DNA from: Candidatus Pacearchaeota archaeon
Lineage (GTDB): Archaea; Nanobdellota; Nanobdellia; Pacearchaeales; GW2011-AR1
Assembly (NCBI GenBank): GCA_016188825.1
Contig: JACPHA010000011.1
Coordinates: 80,317-144,316, forward strand
Reading direction: 5' to 3'
DNA length: 64,000 bases
Each line of letters opens with the position of its first letter. Position 1 is the stretch's first letter. Below the pieces are notes generated by a model. The model was given only the letters and a program-made list of their open reading frames with translations. It was not told where the DNA came from and did no database searches. Shown here piece after piece: positions 3,336-52,696 of this stretch. The position numbers and the translations under genes are program-made.

Positions 3336-4862
3336 ATGAACGAGAAAGAAATAATCGAGAAGAAGAAGAAACAGGAACTTGAGGAATTGATTGAGATACT
3401 TGGAAATATAAAAGGAAGACATACGGAGCTTGTTAGTGTGTTAGTGCCTGCTGGTTATAATATTAATTCTGTTACAAGACAGCTGGAGAGCGAGAAGTCT
3501 ACTGCTGCGAATATTAAATCAAAGCAGACAAGGAAAGCAGTTACAGACGCGCTTGAAAGAATAATAAGAGAATTAAAAGGAATGAAGGAAACTCCTCAAA
3601 ATGGACTCGCAATTTATTGCGGGAATATTTCACAAAAAGAAGGAGAAGTTGATATACGACTTTGGGTTTATGAACCTCTTAAACCATTGAATGTCAGGAC
3701 ATATAGATGTGATCAGGAATTTGTTATTGAGCCATTGAGAGAGATGGTTGCTGTAGACGAGGTTTATGGTTTGCTTGTGATTGACAGACAGCAGGCAACG
3801 ATTGGTTTGCTCGAGGGAAACAACATAAAAGTTTTGCAGAGATTGACTTCTGGAGTTCCAGGGAAGGTAAGGGCGGGAGGACAATGCTTGTCGCCGGATG
3901 CACTCCTTGTTAAAAAAAATAAAGGAGAAATTAAATTAGAGGAAGTTAAGAAAGGAGATTTATTGGAAGGAATAAATTTTGATACAATGAAAAAAACATT
4001 TAATAAATGCATTAATAAGTGGTCAGTTAATAAAAAAGAAAGTTTATTAATAATTACGAATGGCGAATTTCCCTCTTCGCATATTGACTGCTCTATAGAT
4101 CACACTTTTTATGTTTATAATAAAAACAAAGTTGCGAAGAGAATTGCCTCGCGTTTGAAGGTGGGCGACTTTTTTATTGGAGTGGAGGGTAAATTAATTA
4201 AAATATTATCTATAGATAAAGCAGCATCTGGTCGACAGTTAATAGATATTGAAGTTGAGAATAAAAACTTTTTTGCAAATGGACTTTTAGTGCACAATTC
4301 ATCTCAGCGTTTTCATAGAATTACGGAGGGGTTAGCAAAAGAATTTTATAGGAGAGTTGCGGATGATATGAAAAGGCATTTTTTTGACATGCCTAAGCTA
4401 AAGGGAATTTTGATTGGGGGGCCAATACCAACAAAAGAGGATTTTCTTGCAGAAGGAAATTTAGTTACAAAGCTGAAAGAAAAGGTTATTTCGATAAAGG
4501 ATCTGGGCTATGTTGATGAGCACGGCTTAGAGTTATTAGTTGAAGATTCTCGGGATGAAATTAAAGAGCAGGAATTAATTAGAGAGAAAAATTTTGTGAC
4601 AAAGTTTTTCGAAATTTTGGGCAAGGACAGCAAGATGGCTGTTTACGGTTATGAGAAAGTTAGAATTGCTTTACAAAGAGGAGCTGTTGCACTTTTACTT
4701 ATTTCAAAGGGTTTTGACAGACAGAAATCACAAGAGCTTGAAAAAATGGCTGAAAATATAAGTTCAGAGGTAATTTTAATAAGCGAAAATCATCATGACG
4801 GAGAGCAATTTTATCATTTGACAAAAGGTGTTGGAGCAATATTGAGGTTTGGGCTGGAATAG
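3336..4862 (+). CDS. prf1: Peptide chain release factor aRF1 interrupted by a mini-intein
   Basis: 508 aa; aRF1 N-domain, GGQ motif at aa 181-183 immediately followed by Cys-initiated insert ending HN|S, then SQRFHR continuation. Confidence 0.8.
   Translation: MNEKEIIEKKKKQELEELIEILGNIKGRHTELVSVLVPAGYNINSVTRQLESEKSTAANIKSKQTRKAVTDALERIIRELKGMKETPQNGLAIYCGNISQKEGEVDIRLWVYEPLKPLNVRTYRCDQEFVIEPLREMVAVDEVYGLLVIDRQQATIGLLEGNNIKVLQRLTSGVPGKVRAGGQCLSPDALLVKKNKGEIKLEEVKKGDLLEGINFDTMKKTFNKCINKWSVNKKESLLIITNGEFPSSHIDCSIDHTFYVYNKNKVAKRIASRLKVGDFFIGVEGKLIKILSIDKAASGRQLIDIEVENKNFFANGLLVHNSSQRFHRITEGLAKEFYRRVADDMKRHFFDMPKLKGILIGGPIPTKEDFLAEGNLVTKLKEKVISIKDLGYVDEHGLELLVEDSRDEIKEQELIREKNFVTKFFEILGKDSKMAVYGYEKVRIALQRGAVALLLISKGFDRQKSQELEKMAENISSEVILISENHHDGEQFYHLTKGVGAILRFGLE
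3885..4298 (+). other. Mini-intein (138 aa, Hint domain only, no homing endonuclease) inserted directly after the GGQ motif of aRF1
   Basis: Insert starts CLSPDALL (block A), internal T/S-x-x-H, ends NGLLVHN followed by +1 Ser; host protein without it reads GGQ|SQRFHR as in standard aRF1. Confidence 0.75.
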
Positions 4863-9329: not shown

Positions 9330-9405
9330 ATTTTTTAAGGAGATGACTATTTTTAGTATCTGTCAAAAAGAATAATTTAAAAAAGTTTGTTTTTCTTATG
9401 TTAAG

Positions 9406-10479: not shown

Positions 10480-11268
10480 TTGTTATTTTTGTTAACGTAT
10501 CTAATAATAAAAAAGGGAAAATTGAGAGAAATTCTATCTATAGCATTTCACAAAGCCGGAAATATTAGGAAGCTTGAAAAAATTACCGGAATACCTAGAG
10601 CCACTTTGTCTGCGTATCATACGGAAAATAGGTTGATTAATCTTAAAAACTTAGAAAAGATTGTTAAGTATCTTGCAATAAAATTTCCCGATAAAGAAAT
10701 AGTAAAGAGATTGCCTCCTAATTGGAAACAGGTCAAAGGAGGTAAGAACAGCGGGGCTATTAGGAAAAGAGAAGGCACATTTGAAAAGCAAATGTTATTG
10801 TGTAGAAAAGGAAGCTCTAGATATATGAAGCTTTGGCATATTACTATGAAGAAGTTAAGCCCGGAGAAGTATTATTCTTCGCAGTTTGAGAAGTTTAAAA
10901 AAATCGGTTTATATAAATTTGAGACCATCGGAAAAATAAAAGTAAGGAATGTTCTTGAGAAAGAGATTGGAGATATTCTTGAAAAGATTAGAGTTGATTA
11001 TAAATATGAAACTCTCGTTAGAGTTGGAAAAAAAGTATTTTTTCCTGATTTTTTTATAGGTGGTAAGGTGATAGTTGAATGTACTATGTGGAGAGGCTTT
11101 GATAAAGCTATAAAATTAAAGGAGAAAATTAAATATTTGGAGAAAAAATATAAGGTTTATGTAGTAATCCCAAAAACTTTAAATAGGTATTACAAGATTC
11201 TTAATCGCAATCTAGTCTTAGGACCGGATGAATTTGTCCCGGTAGCTCAGACTTTTCCTAAATTATAA
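10480..11268 (+). CDS. Hypothetical protein, N-terminal HTH-like and C-terminal PD-(D/E)xK-like region
   Basis: 262 aa ORF; FPDFF..VIVECT..K pattern; last 11 codons overlap the 5' exon of tRNA-Asn. Confidence 0.4.
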   Translation: MLFLLTYLIIKKGKLREILSIAFHKAGNIRKLEKITGIPRATLSAYHTENRLINLKNLEKIVKYLAIKFPDKEIVKRLPPNWKQVKGGKNSGAIRKREGTFEKQMLLCRKGSSRYMKLWHITMKKLSPEKYYSSQFEKFKKIGLYKFETIGKIKVRNVLEKEIGDILEKIRVDYKYETLVRVGKKVFFPDFFIGGKVIVECTMWRGFDKAIKLKEKIKYLEKKYKVYVVIPKTLNRYYKILNRNLVLGPDEFVPVAQTFPKL

Positions 11269-11346
11269 AAAATTTGGATAAGGAGCAATTGGCAGAGCAT
11301 ATGGCTGTTAACCATAGGGTCAGAGGTTCGAGTCCTCTCCGGGACG
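11236..11346 (+). tRNA. tRNA-Asn(GUU) with a ~38-nt intron in the D-loop (non-canonical position, about 11251-11288)
   Basis: 5' exon gtcccgg-ta-gctc-ag; 3' exon ttggca-gagc-a-tatgg-ctGTTaa-ccata-gggtc-agagg-ttcgagt-cctct-ccgggac-g; acceptor stems pair perfectly only across the insert. Confidence 0.55.
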
Positions 11347-43373: not shown

Positions 43374-43515
43374 GATCCCGTAGCTTAGCCTGGTCAGAGC
43401 GCCGGTCTTATATGACGTGCGTTTCTTCCTTGCTTAATTTGGGGAAGCAATGCAGAGCTTTATCGAGCAATTCGAAGAAAGCCGGAGGTCGGGAGTTCAA
43501 ATCTCCCCGGGATCA
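43374..43515 (+). tRNA. tRNA-Ile(UAU) with ~67-nt intron at canonical 37/38 position (about 43413-43479)
   Basis: Acceptor gatcccg/cgggatc + A73; D-arm; anticodon stem ccggt/gccgg across the intron with loop c-t-TAT-a; T-arm gggag-ttcaaat-ctccc. Confidence 0.5.
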
Positions 43516-45786: not shown

Positions 45787-45830
45787 GCCCCTGTAGTCTA
45801 GAGGCCAAGGACACGGCCCTTTCGCGGCGG
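45787..45830 (+). other. attL: 5' half of host tRNA-Glu(UUC) (acceptor, D-arm, 5' anticodon stem, anticodon loop) fused to element-derived arm
   Basis: gcccctg-ta-gtct-agaggccaa-ggac-a-cggcc-ctTTCgc then ggcgg (non-tRNA arm); no T-arm follows. Confidence 0.7.
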
Positions 45831-45910
45831 AGAAGAAAAATCGCCACCCGTGAAGGGCGGAGAAAGCTAGGCGAAAAGCCCTTAAAGGGCGGAGAAGATA
45901 GAAACCACAT

Positions 45911-45983
45911 GCCCGATTAGTCTAGTGGTCAAGGACGAGGCCCTTTCGCGGCCTAAACCCGGGTTCGAATCCCGGATCGGGCA
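45911..45983 (+). tRNA. tRNA-Glu(UUC), intact, element-borne (diverged from host copy)
   Basis: gcccgat-ta-gtct-agtggtcaa-ggac-g-aggcc-ctTTCgc-ggcct-aaac-ccggg-ttcgaat-cccgg-atcgggc-a. Confidence 0.8.
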
Positions 45984-45991
45984 TTATTATT

Positions 45992-46984
45992 TTGAAGTCT
46001 TCGGACCAAATGAAAAGAGACGAAGAAGTTCAAAAAAAGAAACAGAAAGCAGATTTGAACCTAATAGTGTTCAAACTTCTAGAGAGAGGCGTCAGGCCAT
46101 CGAAGATGTGCGAGGTGCTGAATCTGAAAAAGACAGCGCTTCAATATTATTTATCAACGCTAAAGAGAAATGGATTTATCAAAAAAGTTGGATATGGCGT
46201 TTGGGAAATTACCAAGAATTATGATCCTAAAGAAGTTCAAAAGTCAACACAGGTAGCTCCTGCTGTCATTGGTGAAGATTTGAACTTGTTAAAAGAAGAT
46301 TACGTGCGAGCTCACGCTTTCATGTTTACTTTGAAAATTCCAGAAATAAAAGACTGGAACCGCAGGGAAGAAATTTTGGATAACCATGCTATCAAATATA
46401 TTTCTCTTGGCAATCTGGGCGGTGGACAGAAACTCGTATTTAAGGGCCGCAATGTGCATCTCAAGAACAATTCAATTATTGTATACGAAAAATCAAGCTA
46501 CTTTTCGCAGTTTGCAAAAAAGGCGCAACAGCACTCTGTGTATGACTATCTGAAGCTAATCAGGAGCTTGGAGAAGTTCCTAGGGATTGATTTCTCGTTC
46601 AAGGGGCATTACAAGTTCAAAGTTTCAAGACAACATTATTCTCTGGTAAAAAACGCTCTCGCAAAGCAGTATGATGAGGAAGGGAAGAAATTGAGCGTTT
46701 ACAATGCGCAAGGGCTATGGTTCATCATTGATAACTCATTTAATTTGCATGAAGCGGAAGCCATCCATCCAAAAACTGCTCTCGAAGATATTGAGAAAGT
46801 ACAGGATTTCTTTAATGAACTAAAAATCAATCCGATGACTACAACGGAAATTAAACAGAACTTCACCGAAATCAATGAACTTCTAAAGCAATCTTCAAGG
46901 AGCCAAGTTGACACGGCCATGGTTTTGCAACAACTTGATGGCAACGTAAAACAAATTGTCAAAATACTAGGAGAGAGAAAATGA
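45992..46984 (+). CDS. Element protein with N-terminal winged-HTH DNA-binding domain
   Basis: 330 aa; wHTH-like N-terminus (VFKLLERG..PSKMCEVLNLKKTALQYYLSTLKRNGFIKKVGYGVWEI). Confidence 0.45.
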   Translation: MKSSDQMKRDEEVQKKKQKADLNLIVFKLLERGVRPSKMCEVLNLKKTALQYYLSTLKRNGFIKKVGYGVWEITKNYDPKEVQKSTQVAPAVIGEDLNLLKEDYVRAHAFMFTLKIPEIKDWNRREEILDNHAIKYISLGNLGGGQKLVFKGRNVHLKNNSIIVYEKSSYFSQFAKKAQQHSVYDYLKLIRSLEKFLGIDFSFKGHYKFKVSRQHYSLVKNALAKQYDEEGKKLSVYNAQGLWFIIDNSFNLHEAEAIHPKTALEDIEKVQDFFNELKINPMTTTEIKQNFTEINELLKQSSRSQVDTAMVLQQLDGNVKQIVKILGERK

Positions 46985-47232
46985 AAGATTCAATATACTT
47001 AATATTCAATAGACACGGAGTTAGAGGATTCAGAAAAACTCTTCCTAAACTAAGTTCTGGAGAATTTGCAACAAAGCTAACTCTAAAGGTAGATGACAAG
47101 TTCTTCAAACAAATCGTTCCAGAAGCAACAATGGAATTAGATGATAAGTTCATTATTGAACCGAAAATAGAGTTATCGCCAGAAGTGAAGCTAGAGGAAA
47201 CAAAGAGGGCAGAACATGAAACAGGACCATAG
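46981..47232 (+). CDS. Small element ORF
   Basis: 83 aa, overlaps upstream stop by 4 bp. Confidence 0.3.
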   Translation: MKDSIYLIFNRHGVRGFRKTLPKLSSGEFATKLTLKVDDKFFKQIVPEATMELDDKFIIEPKIELSPEVKLEETKRAEHETGP

Positions 47233-47413
47233 AAGAATAAGCAAAGAAAAGCATGAAATAGCATACATCAGAAAACTAGCCAGAGAAGAACTACAGGCAA
47301 GCTCACGTACAGGAAGGTCGGAAAGGATCGCAAGAGCATTTCTCAAAGTTACTAGGGGGTACTCAAAGAAACGCTGATGGAAGAGGAAGAAGAATTGATG
47401 CCTTGGGATGTAG

Positions 47414-47902
47414 ATGAAGAAAATGATGCTAGTGAGTCTGACGAAGACTGGGAGAGTGATGAAGATGACTGATAAGAGCTGGAAGCAATTGGAAAGGAGA
47501 GTTGCACGATGGATGGGCGGAGTAAGAGTTCCACTAAGCGGAGCAAATAATAAGTTTAGATCGGGGGATGTTGATCACCCTTCTTTATTCATTGAAGTTA
47601 AGCAACGTGCCAACTTAGGCTTCTTGAAATGGTTTGAGAAAGCGCAGGAAGATAGTGAAAAAGAACTTAAGGGTGTACCAAAACAAGAACAGAAAAAGAT
47701 CTTGCTTGTAGTTCACGAAAAGAAATCTCATAAGGTCTTTGGTATGATGAGATTACTTGACATTTGCCAATGGGACGCAATGGAGCAAGCTCTCTATAAA
47801 TTGAAGCAAGAAAATCCCCAAGCCTATTCTGCTTTCTTAGAATCATATGCTAATGAAATGCAAAAGAGGTGCCCAGGTGAAGAACGAAAATCAGGAAATT
47901 AA
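47414..47902 (+). CDS. Hjc/VRR-NUC-like PD-(D/E)xK nuclease (Holliday-junction resolvase-like)
   Basis: ..ERRVARWMGGVRVPLSGA..GDVDHPSLFIEVKQR.. matches Hjc E-R, S-G, D, E-V-K catalytic pattern. Confidence 0.45.
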   Translation: MKKMMLVSLTKTGRVMKMTDKSWKQLERRVARWMGGVRVPLSGANNKFRSGDVDHPSLFIEVKQRANLGFLKWFEKAQEDSEKELKGVPKQEQKKILLVVHEKKSHKVFGMMRLLDICQWDAMEQALYKLKQENPQAYSAFLESYANEMQKRCPGEERKSGN

Positions 47903-48030
47903 AAAAATAAACAAAACGCTGGAAAGCATTCGAACATTCATCATAGCAGAGGCTCAATTAACAAAACAGATTAATCTCGGCATTCAAGAAGTAATTCGAG
48001 AATTGAAAGCTCTAAAGGGGGTGGCTGAAA

Positions 48031-48318
48031 ATGGTATTTCAATACCTAGTAAGAGAGAGGTATCATAAGATGTTAAAATACATTAGGAGAAGAAAGCCGA
48101 ACATGAGGCAGATTGCTAGAGAAACGCATTTTGCATATCAATGGGTGAGAGAGATCATGCTTGAATTTGAAAAGAGTGGATTGATTGATCCAGTCTTTAA
48201 CAATCCGGAATATGAGAAAAGGGATTACAATATTTCTTTCACAGAAAAGGGGCTCAAGTTGTTGGACTATATAGAATCAATACAAAAAATAACGGAGGTG
48301 AAAATAAAACATGACTGA
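48031..48318 (+). CDS. Small winged-HTH (MarR/TrmB-like) protein
   Basis: 95 aa; MRQIARETHFAYQWVREIMLEFEKSGLI. Confidence 0.4.
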   Translation: MVFQYLVRERYHKMLKYIRRRKPNMRQIARETHFAYQWVREIMLEFEKSGLIDPVFNNPEYEKRDYNISFTEKGLKLLDYIESIQKITEVKIKHD

Positions 48319-48751
48319 TGAAAATGAAGGGGTTAAGCTTTCTTATGATGAGCGAAGAAAGGAATTGACTCGCGAAGTTACAGCCGAAAAGGAAGATGAA
48401 ACAACTCTGTGGAAGATTACTCTTAAAGAAAATGGAATCAAGAGAATCTTTGATGGTTTAAAGAACGATAAGAAAGATCTTCAAAGAGCATTAGGCAGAC
48501 AAGAGGATCTTCTGTCACAATTGACAAAACAAGAGAGTGATGTCGAGAAAGTTGAGCTTACCGAGGAGCAGATTAAACTCAAGGAAAACATCATCGCTTT
48601 GCAGAAGGATGACAAGTACAATAACTGGAAGAAAAAAGTCGACAATACAAATGAACAGTTAGAGAACATCAAGAATGAAATCAAGGAGAAAAATAAACTG
48701 ATTCAGGAAATAAAAAACAAAGCGAGGAACCTGAACTTGAGCGATATTTGA
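48311..48751 (+). CDS. Coiled-coil protein
   Basis: 146 aa, E/K-rich heptad-like. Confidence 0.3.
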   Translation: MTDENEGVKLSYDERRKELTREVTAEKEDETTLWKITLKENGIKRIFDGLKNDKKDLQRALGRQEDLLSQLTKQESDVEKVELTEEQIKLKENIIALQKDDKYNNWKKKVDNTNEQLENIKNEIKEKNKLIQEIKNKARNLNLSDI

Positions 48752-48757
48752 GGTAAA

Positions 48758-49306
48758 ATGGCAAAGGAACTTGAAATAAAATACATTGAACTTTCCGAGA
48801 TAATTCCATACGAAAGAAACCCGAGAAAGAACGATAAAGCGGTTGATGTAGTTGCAAAATCAATTAAAGAGTTGGCTGGAGATAGAGAATTGGTCAGCAC
48901 AAATTATTATGTTGCTCCATTAGACATAAAAGCCGATGAAGAAAAGTACTGGGCTCATCAAAGGTTTCTCAACAAGTTGAGACAAATTCCAAAGTTTGAA
49001 GTTGTATTATGCACTCTAAAGAAATTAAAAGCAGACGGTGGAAAATACGTATATGTAGTGAAGGGAGATGATGTAAAGATGTCAAACGCTTTGCTTATGG
49101 GAGCAGTCGATAATTTATACGATACTGCAATAGTAATTAGCGGTGACGAAGACTTTATTGATTCAATAAACATTGTAAGAAAGAGATACAAAAAGAAAAT
49201 AGGGAATGCTTATTTCAGTAAAAGTTCTTCATCAAACTTAAGAAATGCATGTGACTTTACTATAAACTTGGATAAGATCTTAGATAAAATTGTAGATAAG
49301 AAGTGA
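48758..49306 (+). CDS. ParB-like N-terminal domain fused to NYN/LabA-like nuclease domain
   Basis: IELSEIIPYERNPR (ParB/Srx motif) and ..VYVVKGDDV..AIVISGDEDFIDSINIVRKRYKK (LabA/NYN pattern). Confidence 0.4.
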   Translation: MAKELEIKYIELSEIIPYERNPRKNDKAVDVVAKSIKELAGDRELVSTNYYVAPLDIKADEEKYWAHQRFLNKLRQIPKFEVVLCTLKKLKADGGKYVYVVKGDDVKMSNALLMGAVDNLYDTAIVISGDEDFIDSINIVRKRYKKKIGNAYFSKSSSSNLRNACDFTINLDKILDKIVDKK

Positions 49307-49735
49307 ACATGAGAGCTCAGTATTGCCGAAGCCATACTGAGCATTAACAATAAACTAGAGTTTTAGAAATTTATAAACCTTCCGCTTTCGCATATTTCCA
49401 GCCCATGTGCTCGTATATCTCCTCTACTATAGCCAACTGTCCTTCTCCTTCTTCGGTCAGGTCTTTCTTCTTTCTTAAGTTTAGACAGTCCTTGCGGCAC
49501 TCTTCCAAATACTTCTTTAGCTTTTTTAATTCTTTGTCCATCTTTGTTCCTATTAACCATAGCTCCTATTATACCTTATTTGTCTGCTCGCTCCTTAGCC
49601 ATTTTTTCAAATATAACTATGAGTGTTTTGACTTCTATAAAATCACGAGAACTTCTAGTATTGCTTTTTAAGGAATCAATAACACCTTGAAGATCTGATG
49701 AAACAAGTCGATATTTGATATTACTAAAAGCCGCT

Positions 49736-49924
49736 TCAATATGTCCTTTTTTCATGATTATAACCTCCCTTCTCTAATTTGTAATAAATAAAGCAAACCC
49801 AAGTGCCGTCTTTTTTTTGTATTGGTTGGGAAGCAAAGAAATCTTTCTCACATTCGTTCATCTTTTTGATGAGCTCAAACTCATTGCTAGCAACTATGGC
49901 AAAGACTCTTGTATCTTTAGGCAT
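49736..49924 (-). CDS. Small protein upstream-overlapping integrase gene
   Basis: 62 aa, overlaps integrase start by 8 bp. Confidence 0.3.
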   Translation of the reverse strand: MPKDTRVFAIVASNEFELIKKMNECEKDFFASQPIQKKDGTWVCFIYYKLEKGGYNHEKRTY

Positions 49925-51326
49925 AATTTCGCACCTCTATTCCATTAACGGCCTTTTCAGCTAAAAGCGTGGCCATTCTTTCTCTCATTTTAGACAATTC
50001 TTCATTCTGCCTTTCTACGAGTTTCATCAAGCTTTCGTTAACAGAAGGCTCCTCATTGAGCATATCTTTAGAGATTCTACCATCAAGACCAAGGAATTTA
50101 GTATAATAATCAATTCGTTTGAAGGTCTTCCAACCACCTCTGACCCTTAAGGTATCTAAATTGATTCTCTTGCTTCTTAGATAACAACAACCAGAGTGTC
50201 TGAAGCTATAGCCGGTAATATCAGAAAAGGCCTTGCCTCCTTGAGTTACCTTATTTCCAAATACTTTTATGAATGCTTTTTGTAGATGTTTATTGAATGT
50301 TTTTGGGAAGTAGTGAGGAAATAATCGATCTTCTGGATAAAGTCTATTTTTTCGGATATGCTCTTTGATAATATCCCCGCATAGAATCAAGTTAAACTTT
50401 CTTTCATAGGTTTTAGATATCTCTTTTCTAACATTTACCCAAACCTCATCGTTTTCGAAGGTTAGATCATTGACATAAATATTAGCGATTTCATTTGGAC
50501 TACGAACAATAGAGTCGAAAAGAAATAGGGCAAGAGCTCGGTCACCCTCATCTAATTCAGGAATAACCATTTTTAGCTCTTCATAAGTAAAATAGGTAAA
50601 GTTGTTAGTGTCCATAAAATCGCCTCTAGAAAGATATTTTACGAGATCCGGAACAAATGTCTTTTCTTGTTTTTCTTTACTATCTTCATTCTGTCTATCA
50701 ATTCGTTCGTTTTCTTCATCAATAACCCTCATATACCAGTTCCAAAAAGAAATGAAGTCTTTAACAAAGTCTGGTGTGCTTTTGTAAACCTCGCCGTTTT
50801 CTTTAGCAATAGTGCCATTGCTCATTTCTTCAAAAAACTCATGAACTTCTTCCCTTGTCAAACAACTCTTGGGGCGGCCTTTAGTCATGATCAGATTCTT
50901 GTTAAAACGTTCCTCAAAGAACTTCGCCAGCTTAACCATATGAAAGGCCAAACCACCAAGTCTTCTGGGGCTCCTTTTGCCTTTTTTTGATCGTTTGCCC
51001 GTATTAAGGCCTCTTTCCATGTCGCTCAAGTAGCTAAGAATAATGTCTGAATTGATCTTGCTTATTCCTTCAATACCCTGTTTATGCTTTTCTTTCCAGC
51101 TAGTCCAAGCTTGTATTTTCTTAGAAAGATCCACCACCTCGTTTTTGTTAGAACCTGCTGATTCCATTTTAAAGCTTTTAAAGATCAGGCCCGTGTTTAG
51201 AGGAGTTTCTATAAGCGAGCTATGAACCTTTAGGGTATCAGTATTTTCAACTTCAGATATTCTTGGGTTCATTTGTTGCCAAAGCTGGGCGTTTTTTTCA
51301 ACATTCGTAACGGCGGGTGATTTCAT
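49917..51326 (-). CDS. int: Tyrosine recombinase/integrase (intact, pNOB8-type arrangement)
   Basis: 469 aa; C-terminal catalytic region with R..HxxR (GYSFRHSGCCYLR) and ..RVRGGWKTFKRIDYY (Tyr). Confidence 0.7.
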   Translation of the reverse strand: MKSPAVTNVEKNAQLWQQMNPRISEVENTDTLKVHSSLIETPLNTGLIFKSFKMESAGSNKNEVVDLSKKIQAWTSWKEKHKQGIEGISKINSDIILSYLSDMERGLNTGKRSKKGKRSPRRLGGLAFHMVKLAKFFEERFNKNLIMTKGRPKSCLTREEVHEFFEEMSNGTIAKENGEVYKSTPDFVKDFISFWNWYMRVIDEENERIDRQNEDSKEKQEKTFVPDLVKYLSRGDFMDTNNFTYFTYEELKMVIPELDEGDRALALFLFDSIVRSPNEIANIYVNDLTFENDEVWVNVRKEISKTYERKFNLILCGDIIKEHIRKNRLYPEDRLFPHYFPKTFNKHLQKAFIKVFGNKVTQGGKAFSDITGYSFRHSGCCYLRSKRINLDTLRVRGGWKTFKRIDYYTKFLGLDGRISKDMLNEEPSVNESLMKLVERQNEELSKMRERMATLLAEKAVNGIEVRNYA

Positions 51327-51506
51327 TTGTTTTTCCTTGTTTTATTAATCTATACTTTAGTAGTTTAATATATTTGTAGTTCAATAGATGGTCTATTTAA
51401 ATACTTCTATTCTCCAGTTCTATTAAGTTGTATATCTATTAATATGCGAAAGTTTTAAATAATAGAACCAATTAAATTGTTAATGGTCGGTAAAAGGGAA
51501 GGAAAA

Positions 51507-51632
51507 ATGAAGACGGTAACTATAAAACCAAGTGTTTGGAAGGAATTGTATCATATCAAGGGAAATGAAGGTTACCAGAGTATGTCCGATGTTATTGAAG
51601 ACTTGTTAAAAAAGAGGAAAGGAACCAAATGA
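51507..51632 (+). CDS. 41-aa ribbon-helix-helix-like micro-ORF adjacent to attR
   Basis: MKTVTIKPSVWKELYHIK..SMSDVIEDLL; RHH-like; not in ORF track. Confidence 0.25.
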   Translation: MKTVTIKPSVWKELYHIKGNEGYQSMSDVIEDLLKKRKGTK

Positions 51633-51779
51633 TCAAAAATATAATGCTCCTAAAAACGGAGGAAAGACTAACAAAATAAGAATGCGGAGTTGACCATTAT
51701 GGCCCAAGTGCTCCTCCCTTCAAGGGCGGGGAAAACATGGGTAAGTTCCCTTCAAGGAGAGGGAATAGGGTATGTGGCT

Positions 51780-51825
51780 CCGCCCTTTCGCGGCCGTAGC
51801 CCGGGTTCGAATCCCGGCAGGGGCA
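51780..51825 (+). other. attR: element-derived arm plus 3' half of host tRNA-Glu(UUC)
   Basis: ccgcc-ctttcgc-ggccg-tagc-ccggg-ttcgaat-cccgg-caggggc-a; 3' acceptor caggggc pairs with gcccctg at 45787. Confidence 0.7.
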
Positions 51826-51884: not shown

Positions 51885-52349
51885 ATGTTTATGACATATA
51901 CTGAAATTAAAGAAAAAAATAGTGGAAAATATTATTACAGAGTTAAGAGCATTAGGAACGGAAAAAAATTTAGAAAAAAAAGAATTTACCTTGGAAAAAA
52001 TATATCAAAAGAAGACTTGATTCTGAAGGAAAAAGAGTCAGATGATAAATTAAAAACAGTAAAAAAATTGAGAATTTTAGAGAAAATAAAACCGAAAATT
52101 ATGGAAATTCTAAAGAAAAATAAAATAAAAAAAGCAGGAATTTTTGGAAGTTATGTAAGAGGAGAAGAAAATAGAAACAGCGACATTGATATTTTAATTC
52201 AGCCGACAAAAAATATGGGTTTTAAATTTTCTGGTTTAGAAATTGAATTATCAAAAAAATTAAAGAAAAAAGTAGATTTAGTGAGTTATAATGGTTTAAG
52301 TCCGCATTTGAAAAATAAAATTTTAAGTCAAGAGGTAAGGATAATATGA
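51885..52349 (+). CDS. Minimal nucleotidyltransferase (MntA-like)
   Basis: GIFGSYVRGEENRNSDIDIL motif; true start placed at M after tRNA remnant (track ORF 51690 N-terminus is read-through of attR). Confidence 0.6.
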   Translation: MFMTYTEIKEKNSGKYYYRVKSIRNGKKFRKKRIYLGKNISKEDLILKEKESDDKLKTVKKLRILEKIKPKIMEILKKNKIKKAGIFGSYVRGEENRNSDIDILIQPTKNMGFKFSGLEIELSKKLKKKVDLVSYNGLSPHLKNKILSQEVRII

Positions 52350-52696
52350 GTGATAAAAATGATCTGGCGTTTATCGAACATATTTTGGAAAGCATTAATG
52401 CAATAAAAGATTTTTCTAAAAAAATGAATAAACAGAAGTTAATTTCAAACAGATTAAAACAAAGCGCGATTATCAGAGAAATCGAGATTATAGGAGAAGC
52501 AGTCAAGAATATTTCTGATAGCCTTAAAAATGAACATCGAGAAATAGAATGGAAAGAAATTGCAGGCACAAGAGACAAAATGATTCATCATTATTTTGGT
52601 ATCGATTTGGATATTGTTTGGAACATAATAAAGAAAGATATTCCCATGTTAGAAAAGAAAATCAAGAAAATAAAGAAAGAATTAAAGAAAGGATAA
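52346..52696 (+). CDS. HEPN-domain protein (HepT/DUF86)
   Basis: 116 aa; R-x4-HH motif (RDKMIHHY); 4-bp overlap with MNT. Confidence 0.6.
   Translation: MSDKNDLAFIEHILESINAIKDFSKKMNKQKLISNRLKQSAIIREIEIIGEAVKNISDSLKNEHREIEWKEIAGTRDKMIHHYFGIDLDIVWNIIKKDIPMLEKKIKKIKKELKKG

Follow-up and report, generated by a model that had tools for sequence, protein, structure and literature searches.

An integrative element in the anticodon loop of an archaeal tRNA-Glu(UUC) gene and the replacement tRNA that it probably carries

In a 64,000-nucleotide stretch from a Candidatus Pacearchaeota archaeon (GenBank assembly GCA_016188825.1, contig JACPHA010000011.1, positions 80,317 to 144,316; hereafter the window), two halves of a tRNA-Glu(UUC) gene lie some 6 kb apart, and an intact tRNA gene with the same anticodon lies between them. 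What process left this locus in such a state? The explanation that we favor, and hold to be very probable as a whole, is that an integrative element split the host gene in its anticodon loop and carries a replacement tRNA. The proposed scenario includes the following steps: (i) a tyrosine recombinase would have recombined the anticodon stem-loop of the host gene with the element attachment site (attP), whose core mimics an anticodon arm and lies among four arm-type boxes in direct orientation; (ii) strands would have been exchanged inside, or at the borders of, the 7-bp loop; (iii) the host gene would remain as two dead halves; and (iv) the carried tRNA would have landed just downstream of the decapitated host tRNA promoter, where it could replace the lost gene in place. 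Precise excision would restore the host tRNA-Glu gene exactly.

The split tRNA-Glu gene and its junctions

The 5' half starts on the forward strand at 45787 with the acceptor strand GCCCCTG and continues through the D arm to the 5' strand of the anticodon stem, CGGCC (45814-45818); tRNA positions 1-31 occupy 45787-45818. Together with the anticodon loop CTTTCGC (45819-45825, forward strand), the segment 45787-45825 reads GCCCCTG-TA-GTCT-AGAGGCCAAG-GAC-A-CGGCC-CTTTCGC, i.e., from position 1 of the tRNA through the end of the loop. A TATA-like AT-rich stretch is found upstream of it, and the non-tRNA sequence GGCGGAGAAG follows directly on its 3' side. At the opposite junction, GGCTCCGCC lies directly 5' of attR, and the forward strand from 51778 to 51825 reads CTCCGCC-CTTTCGC-GGCCG-TAGC-CCGGG-TTCGAAT-CCCGG-CAGGGGC-A. 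Here the second copy of the loop (51785-51791) is followed by the 3' half of the host gene (51792-51825), which comprises the stem strand GGCCG, TAGC, the T arm, the acceptor strand CAGGGGC and the discriminator A. Joined at the common loop, the two halves give a sequence of 73 nt that is recognized by ARAGORN as a canonical tRNA-Glu(UUC) with every stem perfectly paired. This anatomy, with the 5' half ending at 45825, agrees with an earlier first-pass annotation of the window, which had proposed an element of this kind.

The two junctions, attL and attR, read CGGCC-CTTTCGC-GGCGG and CCGCC-CTTTCGC-GGCCG, respectively. They share an exact direct repeat of 13 bp, GCCCTTTCGCGGC, at 45816-45828 and 51782-51794, and the 7-nt loop within this common core is the presumed overlap region in which strands are exchanged. 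The element itself corresponds to 45826-51784, the distance from loop copy to loop copy being 5,966 bp, and has a GC content of about 0.37 vs about 0.30 in the flanks. The inverted repeat that the element-side arms form around the loop, noted in the first-pass annotation for CCGCC and GGCGG, is perfect over 7 nt, CTCCGCC ... GGCGGAG. The reconstructed attB is GGACACGGCCCTTTCGCGGCCGTAGCCCGGG and the predicted attP is GTGGCTCCGCCCTTTCGCGGCGGAGAAGAAAAATC. The stretch common to attP and attB is only 13 bp, and therefore neither junction rebuilds a tRNA; no tRNA was found at attL or attR in the window by either ARAGORN or Rfam. Within the window alone, the reciprocal swap of the arms amounts to one base difference on each side of the loop. 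The swap becomes convincing because of the comparison with relatives described below, and those junctions fix the boundary far more firmly.

An assembly chimera or a sequencing artefact could in principle produce such an arrangement, and Logan contigs from other sequencing runs do break inside the internal tRNA, at 45935-45966. However, Logan contigs from six other sequencing runs match the window at 99.97-100% identity, and one of them (L001, 11.1 kb) crosses attL, the whole element and attR at 99.99% identity; single junctions are spanned by further contigs, attR by L006 and attL by L002-L004. A chimera is thus excluded by independent assemblies, and we assign practically no probability to it. 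The individual contig ends, which come from several runs, are at 45966 (L002 and L004), 45947 (L003) and 45935 (L006, start). The break covers a 32-nt tRNA stretch that is probably common to another tRNA-Glu in the community, and we suspect another community member with the same central tRNA-Glu sequence as its cause.

The intact tRNA-Glu(UUC) gene (45911-45983, forward strand) was predicted by ARAGORN and by Rfam (66.5 bits, full length). Its first base lies 85 nt after the attL loop, as the first-pass annotation had it, and it is identical to the reconstructed host tRNA-Glu at 60 of the 73 positions. The order of an intact tRNA, an element and a 3' fragment is the pattern left by classical integration, and about 21 distant relatives of the integrase (31-38% identity) fit this pattern. 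On such an explanation, 45911-45983 would be a regenerated hybrid gene, 51785-51825 its displaced 3' end, and the 5' half an unrelated relic. The explanation is refuted by the acceptor-stem test: the downstream CAGGGGC forms three mismatches with GCCCGAT of the intact tRNA, whereas it pairs perfectly with the upstream GCCCCTG. Moreover, the stems of the intact tRNA pair within the gene itself (GCCCGAT/ATCGGGC in the acceptor, AGGCC/GGCCT in the anticodon stem), and the 5' half is joined directly to a conserved attachment arm both in the window and in a related element. Classical integration at this site is hardly credible, and the earlier claim that the host tRNA is not regenerated holds.

Related elements and the attachment site

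The integrase has 29 close homologues in a set of 5.8 billion proteins. Five junctions were read, that of the window and those of four relatives with 70-98% identical integrases. Three of the target genes encode tRNA-Glu: the window (loop CTTTCGC, then GGCCG-TAGC...CAGGGGC), L007/L014 from a Woesearchaeota metagenome-assembled genome (integrase identity 97%; CTTTCGC, then GGCCT-AAAC...CGTGGGC), and L233 (98%; CTTTCGC, then GGCGC-AAAC...CAGGGGC). The other two encode tRNA-Asp: L012 (81%; CTGTCGC, then GGCCA-AGAG) and L174 (70%; CTGTCAC, then GGTTG-CGAC). At all five integrase-side junctions the conserved P arm is followed by C[T/A]C[C/A]GCC and then by the 7-nt anticodon loop, and beyond the loop the host 3' half is different in each of the five, with three tRNA-Glu and two tRNA-Asp variants. 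The module has moved into five tRNA alleles. A constant arm and loop with a changing host half is what site-specific integration with exchange in the loop would predict, and these independent junctions bear out the anticodon-loop crossover suggested by the first-pass annotation.

The search for the same element in related genomes, proposed together with that annotation, yielded one more complete element. L012, a contig of 4.2 kb, contains a whole small element with the same order of components as in the window: the 5' half, the loop, the P' arm with its boxes, an intact tRNA, genes, the integrase, the P arm, the loop and the 3' half. The loop is duplicated at both junctions in the window and in L012. 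In L012, both the target and the carried gene are tRNA-Asp(GUC). Those anticodon-stem strands that can be seen in its two halves are complementary (TGGCC/GGCCA), and they do not pair with those of the internal tRNA (CGTCC/GGACG); the latter is a real, different tRNA-Asp rather than a Glu gene with an altered anticodon. In both complete elements the carried tRNA is located inside the boundary, at the same position at the P' arm, and has the anticodon of the gene that was cut, Glu-Glu in the window and Asp-Asp in L012. That the replacement tRNA belongs to the element is supported by this comparison, because in L012 the same P' arm precedes another intact tRNA, one that matches the target of L012.

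Further split pairs were sought automatically in 94 sources: an orphan T arm had to be matched by a distant copy of its 7-mer loop, and the sequence joined from the two had to be recognized by ARAGORN. This search found only the window and its duplicate L001. The halves of L012 are cut off at the contig ends, and they were found by eye, not by the automated search. An Rfam scan by E-value revealed no tRNA fragments at the relatives' loci, as the halves score too low.

The position of the 5' half agrees with the organization of more distant genomes. In L022 and L126 an intact tRNA-Glu(UUC) comes after a homologue of the flanking methyltransferase, which places the window 5' half at the ancestral tRNA-Glu locus, and the first 25 nt of the window 5' half recur at the 5' end of an intact tRNA-Glu in L138. 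The host of L233 shares the HisRS and rhomboid neighbors with the host of the window. A second GGCAGGGGCA fragment was observed in L233 at about 9330-9400 (reverse complement). It lies some 60 nt past the 3' half of the split tRNA-Glu and was probably displaced as a 3' end by an older, classical integration into the same gene.

Both arms of the attachment site contain repeated boxes. The P' arm (45826-45910, forward strand) starts with the core arm GGCGGAG (45826-45832), is about 92% identical to the P' arm of L012, and includes two arm-type boxes 32 bp apart, CCCGTGAAGGGCGGAG (45847-45862) and CCCTTAAAGGGCGGAG (45879-45894). The P arm (51716-51784, forward strand) ends with the core arm CTCCGCC (51778-51784) and also includes two boxes 32 bp apart, CCCTTCAAGGGCGGGG (51716-51731) and CCCTTCAAGGAGAGGG (51748-51763); the arm and its boxes are conserved in L007, L012 and L174. 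All four 16-nt boxes are in direct orientation and follow the consensus CCCTTnAAGGGCGGrG. The 12-mer AAGGGCGGRGAA occurs three times in the window vs 0.43 expected, and all three copies are in the attachment arms. The reconstructed attP is about 180 bp long and consists of the P arm, the core and the P' arm, with the tRNA gene immediately next to it. Its core, CTCCGCC-CTTTCGC-GGCGGAG, cannot be told apart from the anticodon arm of a tRNA-Glu or tRNA-Asp of the bacterial type. A degenerate pattern of the core gave 52 matches in IMG/VR, all in bacterial-type tRNA-Asp or tRNA-Glu genes or tRNA-like fragments that have CCGCC/GGCGG as their anticodon stem, and an integrase homologue accompanies none of them; the two-box pattern of the P' arm gave 0 matches in the IMG/VR scan. 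A suhB/mmgR match of Rfam on the minus strand of the P' arm was rejected (23.6 bits vs the 41-bit cut-off, E-value 0.2), as it reflects the palindromic boxes. The core arm and a downstream tetramer co-vary between GGCG...CGCC in the window (45826-45849) and GGGG...CCCC in L012 (reverse complement, about 4150-4175), which could indicate a hairpin, a second inverted binding site or coincidence.

In Nanoarchaeum equitans, the split in tRNA genes lies around the anticodon loop, as it does in the window. The locus might be read as a genuine split tRNA of the Nanoarchaeum type, with the halves transcribed separately, paired via GGCGGAG/CTCCGCC and trans-spliced. The N. equitans split tRNAs include tRNA-Glu(UUC), and their halves are likewise flanked by mutually complementary GC-rich sequences (PMC3491384). 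The hosts are of related lineages, and several integrase relatives come from records titled Nanoarchaeota. In silico, the half transcripts pair with each other in the acceptor and anticodon stems as well as along the 7-nt arms (cofold energy -58.6 kcal/mol), and the host splices tRNA introns, one of them non-canonical. However, the junction of the paired halves is a symmetric 7x7 internal loop and not a bulge-helix-bulge, since the central helix would oppose CTTT to CTTT with 0 of 4 pairs. The complementarity extends over 7 nt, shorter than in N. equitans, and the symmetry of the attP core explains it equally well. The duplicated loop is predicted by a recombination overlap but not by trans-splicing, and no TATA-like element was seen by eye before the 3' half. 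Unlike in N. equitans, an integrase element lies between the halves, an intact isoacceptor gene lies 85 nt away, and the same arms are found beside five different tRNAs, always with the integrase. Altogether, trans-splicing is a very improbable explanation of the locus.

The carried tRNA, the element genes and the integrase family

According to the integration scenario, the carried tRNA would have to be expressed in its new position. It abuts the P' arm and lies 124 nt downstream of the host tRNA transcription start region. No oligo-T run is present anywhere in the P' arm (45826-45910), so no terminator is evident between the host start region and the carried gene. In addition, a TATA-like TTAAAG occurs in the second P' box, 28-29 nt before the first base of the carried tRNA, both in the window and in L012. 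Thus, expression could proceed from the host promoter or from the gene's own TATA-like box. The host tRNA 3' half in L007 is identical to the carried tRNA of the window over 26 nt, and capture of the carried gene from a related host fits this identity. A copying of the attP core from the anticodon arm of the carried tRNA is unsupported, as the core arms differ from the carried stems in both elements (CCGCC/GGCGG vs AGGCC/GGCCT in the window and CCGCC/GGGGG vs CGTCC/GGACG in L012).

Expression of the carried tRNA, the need of the host for it, cleavage at the borders of the loop and a lasting ability of the element to excise are inferred. The first-pass annotation had presumed that the carried tRNA complements the gene that the element destroys, and the observed match between target and carried tRNA is consistent with this role. 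The same anatomy would also arise if the carried tRNA were not needed, either because the host has a second tRNA-Glu(UUC) gene, or because the element is a stranded remnant; the internal tRNA would then be ordinary cargo that serves, for instance, codon supply or the countering of tRNA-targeting defences. Such a possibility is favored by the 64-kb extent of the host genome that was seen, by the failure to find an excised form, and by three relatives (integrase identity 46-48%) that carry a tRNA-Glu(CUC) despite a junction at the T-stem/acceptor boundary and thus show that other arrangements of tRNA cargo exist. It is opposed by the agreement of target and carried tRNA in the two complete elements (Glu in the window, Asp in L012), and by the identical placement of the tRNA against the P' arm in both. 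In addition, the genomes of DPANN archaea are small and their tRNA genes are usually single-copy. We therefore consider a dispensable carried tRNA to be unlikely.

Several other observations weigh against the integration scenario with a replacement tRNA. Only two attL junctions are available, those of the window and L012. The sequences of the larger relatives, L007/L014 (11.9 kb) and L233 with L234 (20.9 kb), stop before attL and include neither the boxes nor a tRNA; these relatives, which exceed 11 kb (L007) and 20 kb (L233/L234), may or may not carry a tRNA. No empty site (attB) was found, as the six Logan contigs with the flanking methyltransferase either stop before the junction or carry attL, and no circular junction (attP) was recovered, the IMG/VR scan with the core having returned bacterial-type tRNA genes only. 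As the data cover 64 kb of the host genome and not its full tRNA set, dependence of the host on the carried tRNA is presumptive. Finally, neither Pfam nor PHROGs revealed recognizable capsid, replication or transfer genes in the element, which may be a satellite or a stranded remnant.

The element encodes an intact tyrosine recombinase of 469 amino acids (49917-51326, reverse strand), in accordance with the first-pass annotation. The open reading frame (ORF) is whole and passes the cut-off of the Pfam Phage_integrase family (PF00589, 31 bits vs 27.1); it also matches the phrog_1 integrase (E-value 3e-13), and its best solved relative in a profile search is 4a8e_A, deposited as 'probable tyrosine recombinase XerC-like' (E-value 2.4e-6). 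In an alignment of 25 homologues, R275, R376, H377, W399 and Y407/Y408 are invariant and K305 is nearly so; the usual His of the signature R...K...(H/Y)xxR...(H/W)...Y is replaced by Y373. From their order and spacing, these residues are predicted to fill the catalytic roles. The Pfam match and the signature together assign the protein to the tyrosine recombinase superfamily.

Two sets of small genes surround the integrase. Three small ORFs (56, 59 and 62 amino acids; 49371-49924, reverse strand) downstream of it are conserved with the integrase in L007, L012 and a clade of 44-54% identical integrases, and they are candidate directionality or regulatory factors. A 51-aa VapB-antitoxin-like or ribbon-helix-helix-like protein (51477-51632, forward strand; VAPB_antitox, 29 bits), encoded between the integrase and attR, always adjoins the integrase in this clade. 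The remaining genes are on the forward strand. They encode a 330-aa winged-helix protein (45992-46984) with weak helix-turn-helix matches and 408 homologues; a 162-aa protein similar to Holliday-junction resolvases or PD-(D/E)xK nucleases (47414-47902; phrog_2002, E-value 1.4e-6; DUF6955, weak); a 95-aa winged-helix protein (48031-48318; HTH_45, E-value 1.2e-4, below the curated cut-off); and a 182-aa NYN-domain protein with a ParB-N-like N-terminus (48758-49306; NYN, E-value 1.2e-12). No capsid, portal or terminase genes were detected in the 6-kb element with Pfam and PHROGs. About 58% identical homologues of the 330-aa protein are encoded by the first gene of Woesearchaeota head-tailed proviruses of about 40 kb, which carry portal, Mu-F, S78 protease and HK97-type capsid genes. 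Because such homologues open these proviruses, the 6-kb element may be a satellite or a cut-down derivative of a head-tailed provirus. Neither the integrase nor the 330-aa protein has any match in the GenBank phage and virus records. The cargo of L233/L234 (Logan SRR29054608_172033) exceeds 20 kb and includes an N6/N4 methyltransferase, a DEAD/ResIII helicase, DndB, a reverse transcriptase and many small ORFs; hence, the att-integrase module moves very different cargoes.

The flanks of the element contain ordinary archaeal genes, including those for an Obg-like GTPase, HisRS, a rhomboid protease and an MNT/HepT pair. The latter, an MNT nucleotidyltransferase with a HepT toxin-antitoxin partner, lies directly outside attR (51894-52696, forward strand); the MNT gene call (216 amino acids) extends back across the tRNA 3' half and is probably too long. 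Two other host tRNA genes on the forward strand contain insertions. One of them (43374-43515) has a 68-nt intron after the anticodon loop; it scores 55.3 bits with Rfam, is missed by ARAGORN in the default mode, and its Rfam-aligned loop CUUAUA suggests the anticodon UAU (Ile). The alternative call of Ser(tga) by the intron mode of ARAGORN is unlikely, as the variable loop is short. The other, tRNA-Asn(GUU) at about 11235-11345, is interrupted in the D loop by a non-canonically placed intron of about 37 nt; Rfam detects only the 3' part of the gene (11282-11341, 29.7 bits), and ARAGORN calls tRNA-Asn after the insert is deleted in silico.

In species-representative genomes, the wider integrase family has 238 members, and the best 80 of them come mostly from genomes named Woesearchaeota, Pacearchaeota or Nanoarchaeota. 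The clade with 44-54% identical integrases has the same module of vapB, integrase and small ORFs. At its integrase-side junction, CACCCCCGG is followed by the tRNA acceptor 3' strand, which places the crossover at the T-stem/acceptor boundary. The three carriers of tRNA-Glu(CUC) mentioned above share this junction and have the intact tRNA inside the integrase module, between the homologues of the 59- and 56-aa ORFs (L095, 2894-2967; L096, 2651-2724; L100, 4571-4644). Among the 31-38% identical integrases, the usual arrangement is seen at about 21 of the 80 loci, where an intact tRNA gene, in most cases for Asp, Glu, Gly or Ser, precedes the integrase by 34-165 nt and is encoded on the same strand. 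The non-restoring anticodon-loop type appears confined to one sub-clade, other members looking mostly conventional, and our impression is that it is derived within the family. Two further observations concern the head-tailed proviruses. In L180 (9480-9690), just upstream of the winged-helix gene of such a provirus, there is an array of six reverse-complement tRNA 3'-end fragments (CCCGG-NNNGGGC-G) that seems to record several successive integrations into the 3' end of a tRNA gene. In L176 (1764-1935), a tRNA-Glu(CUC) adjoining a Woesearchaeota head-tailed provirus has a 103-nt intron at 37/38 with a good bulge-helix-bulge motif; it was missed by ARAGORN, its intron was worked out by eye, and its acceptor stem has a mismatch at 7-66.

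Known systems and the biology of split tRNA genes

The closest known counterpart of the integration scenario is tRNA-dependent lysogeny, described in 2024 for mycobacteriophages and other actinobacteriophages (Guerrero-Bustamante & Hatfull 2024, PMC10865867). In these phages (Fionnbharth/K4, cluster L, Cain/K6, BrutonGaster and OneUp/CQ2, Mollymur/DL, and Gaia/X), a tyrosine integrase uses an attB in a tRNA gene with a core of 8-17 bp, the tRNA is not reconstructed, and a phage-borne cognate tRNA is required for survival of the lysogen, as shown genetically; sibling phages switch the target and the tRNA together, Lys vs Ile2 (PMC10865867). The window shares these features: a tyrosine integrase, attB in a tRNA gene, arm-type sites flanking a short core (13 bp), no tRNA rebuilt at either junction, an element tRNA of the isotype and anticodon of the disrupted gene (Glu(UUC) in the window, Asp(GUC) in L012), and a joint switch of target and tRNA between close relatives (Glu vs Asp). 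Near relatives of the integrase are arranged otherwise in both cases, with tRNA rebuilding in the phages and with an intact integrase-adjacent tRNA or a T-stem junction here, a patchwork similar to that reported for the mycobacteriophage integrases (PMC10865867). In contrast to the phages, the host is a DPANN archaeon, the element has 4-6 kb and no virion genes vs a temperate phage of about 40 kb, the carried tRNA begins right at the P' arm, 85 nt from the crossover, and comes to lie behind the host tRNA promoter, and the attP core imitates an anticodon arm almost perfectly. The need for the tRNA has been shown genetically in the phages and is presumed in the window. Every structural feature of tRNA-dependent lysogeny can thus be recognized in the sequence, and the element appears to work like the known system. 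A temperate phage cannot be recognized in it, as Pfam and PHROGs revealed no capsid, portal or terminase genes in the 6 kb, and 'lysogeny' in the strict sense may not apply. An earlier case is the bacterial prophage Lj965 of Lactobacillus johnsonii, which, as cited in PMC10865867, likewise encodes a cognate tRNA and does not rebuild the tRNA at the junction.

Among archaeal integrases, the overlap region of SSV1 corresponds to the tRNA anticodon loop (PMC8371274), as here. In SSV-type elements attP lies inside the integrase gene, which is split on integration; in the window the integrase is intact, and the halves of the attP core (51778-51791 and 45819-45832) are outside its ORF, and in attP the core would be placed about 450 nt upstream of the integrase start codon. 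A 2021 review of archaeal tyrosine recombinases states that the tRNA gene is left uninterrupted after integration (PMC8371274), whereas the window element splits it. The first-pass annotation had called the combination of an anticodon-loop crossover with a replacement tRNA unusual. The combination does appear to be so, and to be new in Archaea; a crossover at that place is nothing unusual among tyrosine integrases (PMC8371274), and the principle of a short core without tRNA reconstruction plus a cognate tRNA had already been described (PMC10865867). Hence, the strategy itself is not new and matches that of the actinobacteriophages and Lj965. What is apparently new is the archaeal host, the small capsid-less element, and the replacement tRNA abutting the att site downstream of a decapitated promoter. 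Among the listed titles using the term 'tRNA-dependent lysogeny' none concerns Archaea, and the locus looks like the first archaeal counterpart of that system.

A disrupted archaeal tRNA next to a mobile element has also been reported in Caldiarchaeum subterraneum, where tRNA-Thr is interrupted by a recombinase-bearing insertion, and the authors proposed that tRNA genes can become disrupted in this way (Sugahara et al. 2012, PMC3293823). In both cases a tRNA fragment lies beside a mobile element and next to an intact tRNA with the same anticodon. The C. subterraneum insertion differs in being 1.8 kb long, transposable-element-like and accompanied by intron gain, with no att core or element-borne tRNA claimed.

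A more speculative link is that to the origin of split tRNA genes in DPANN and Nanoarchaeota from non-restoring integrations into the anticodon loop, which we regard as quite improbable. In this process, the inverted repeat of the attP core would furnish each half with a GC-rich complement to the other, GGCGGAG on the 3' side of the 5' half and CTCCGCC on the 5' side of the 3' half, and such flanking complementarity is of the kind known from the Nanoarchaeum split tRNAs. The element-borne tRNA would keep the cell alive in the meantime, and a later rearrangement with a few substitutions might create a bulge-helix-bulge and allow trans-splicing. If this is true, introns at 37/38, as in other tRNAs of this host, would shield the genes from the integrase. 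The locus provides a concrete and datable case in which a recombinase splits an archaeal tRNA gene at the anticodon loop and leaves complementary flanks, and it makes the idea of a connection between mobile elements and split tRNAs testable with real intermediates.

For the integrase family, the locus extends tRNA-dependent integration from actinobacteriophages to Archaea and supplies a counter-example to the 2021 review. The compact layout of the attP core, the 85-bp arm and the tRNA, together with the Glu and Asp variants, suggests a small retargetable integration cassette, which may be of use for organisms currently without genetic tools. For the host, with its reduced DPANN genome, the element could be hard to lose except by precise excision, since other deletions would remove what may be its only tRNA-Glu(UUC).

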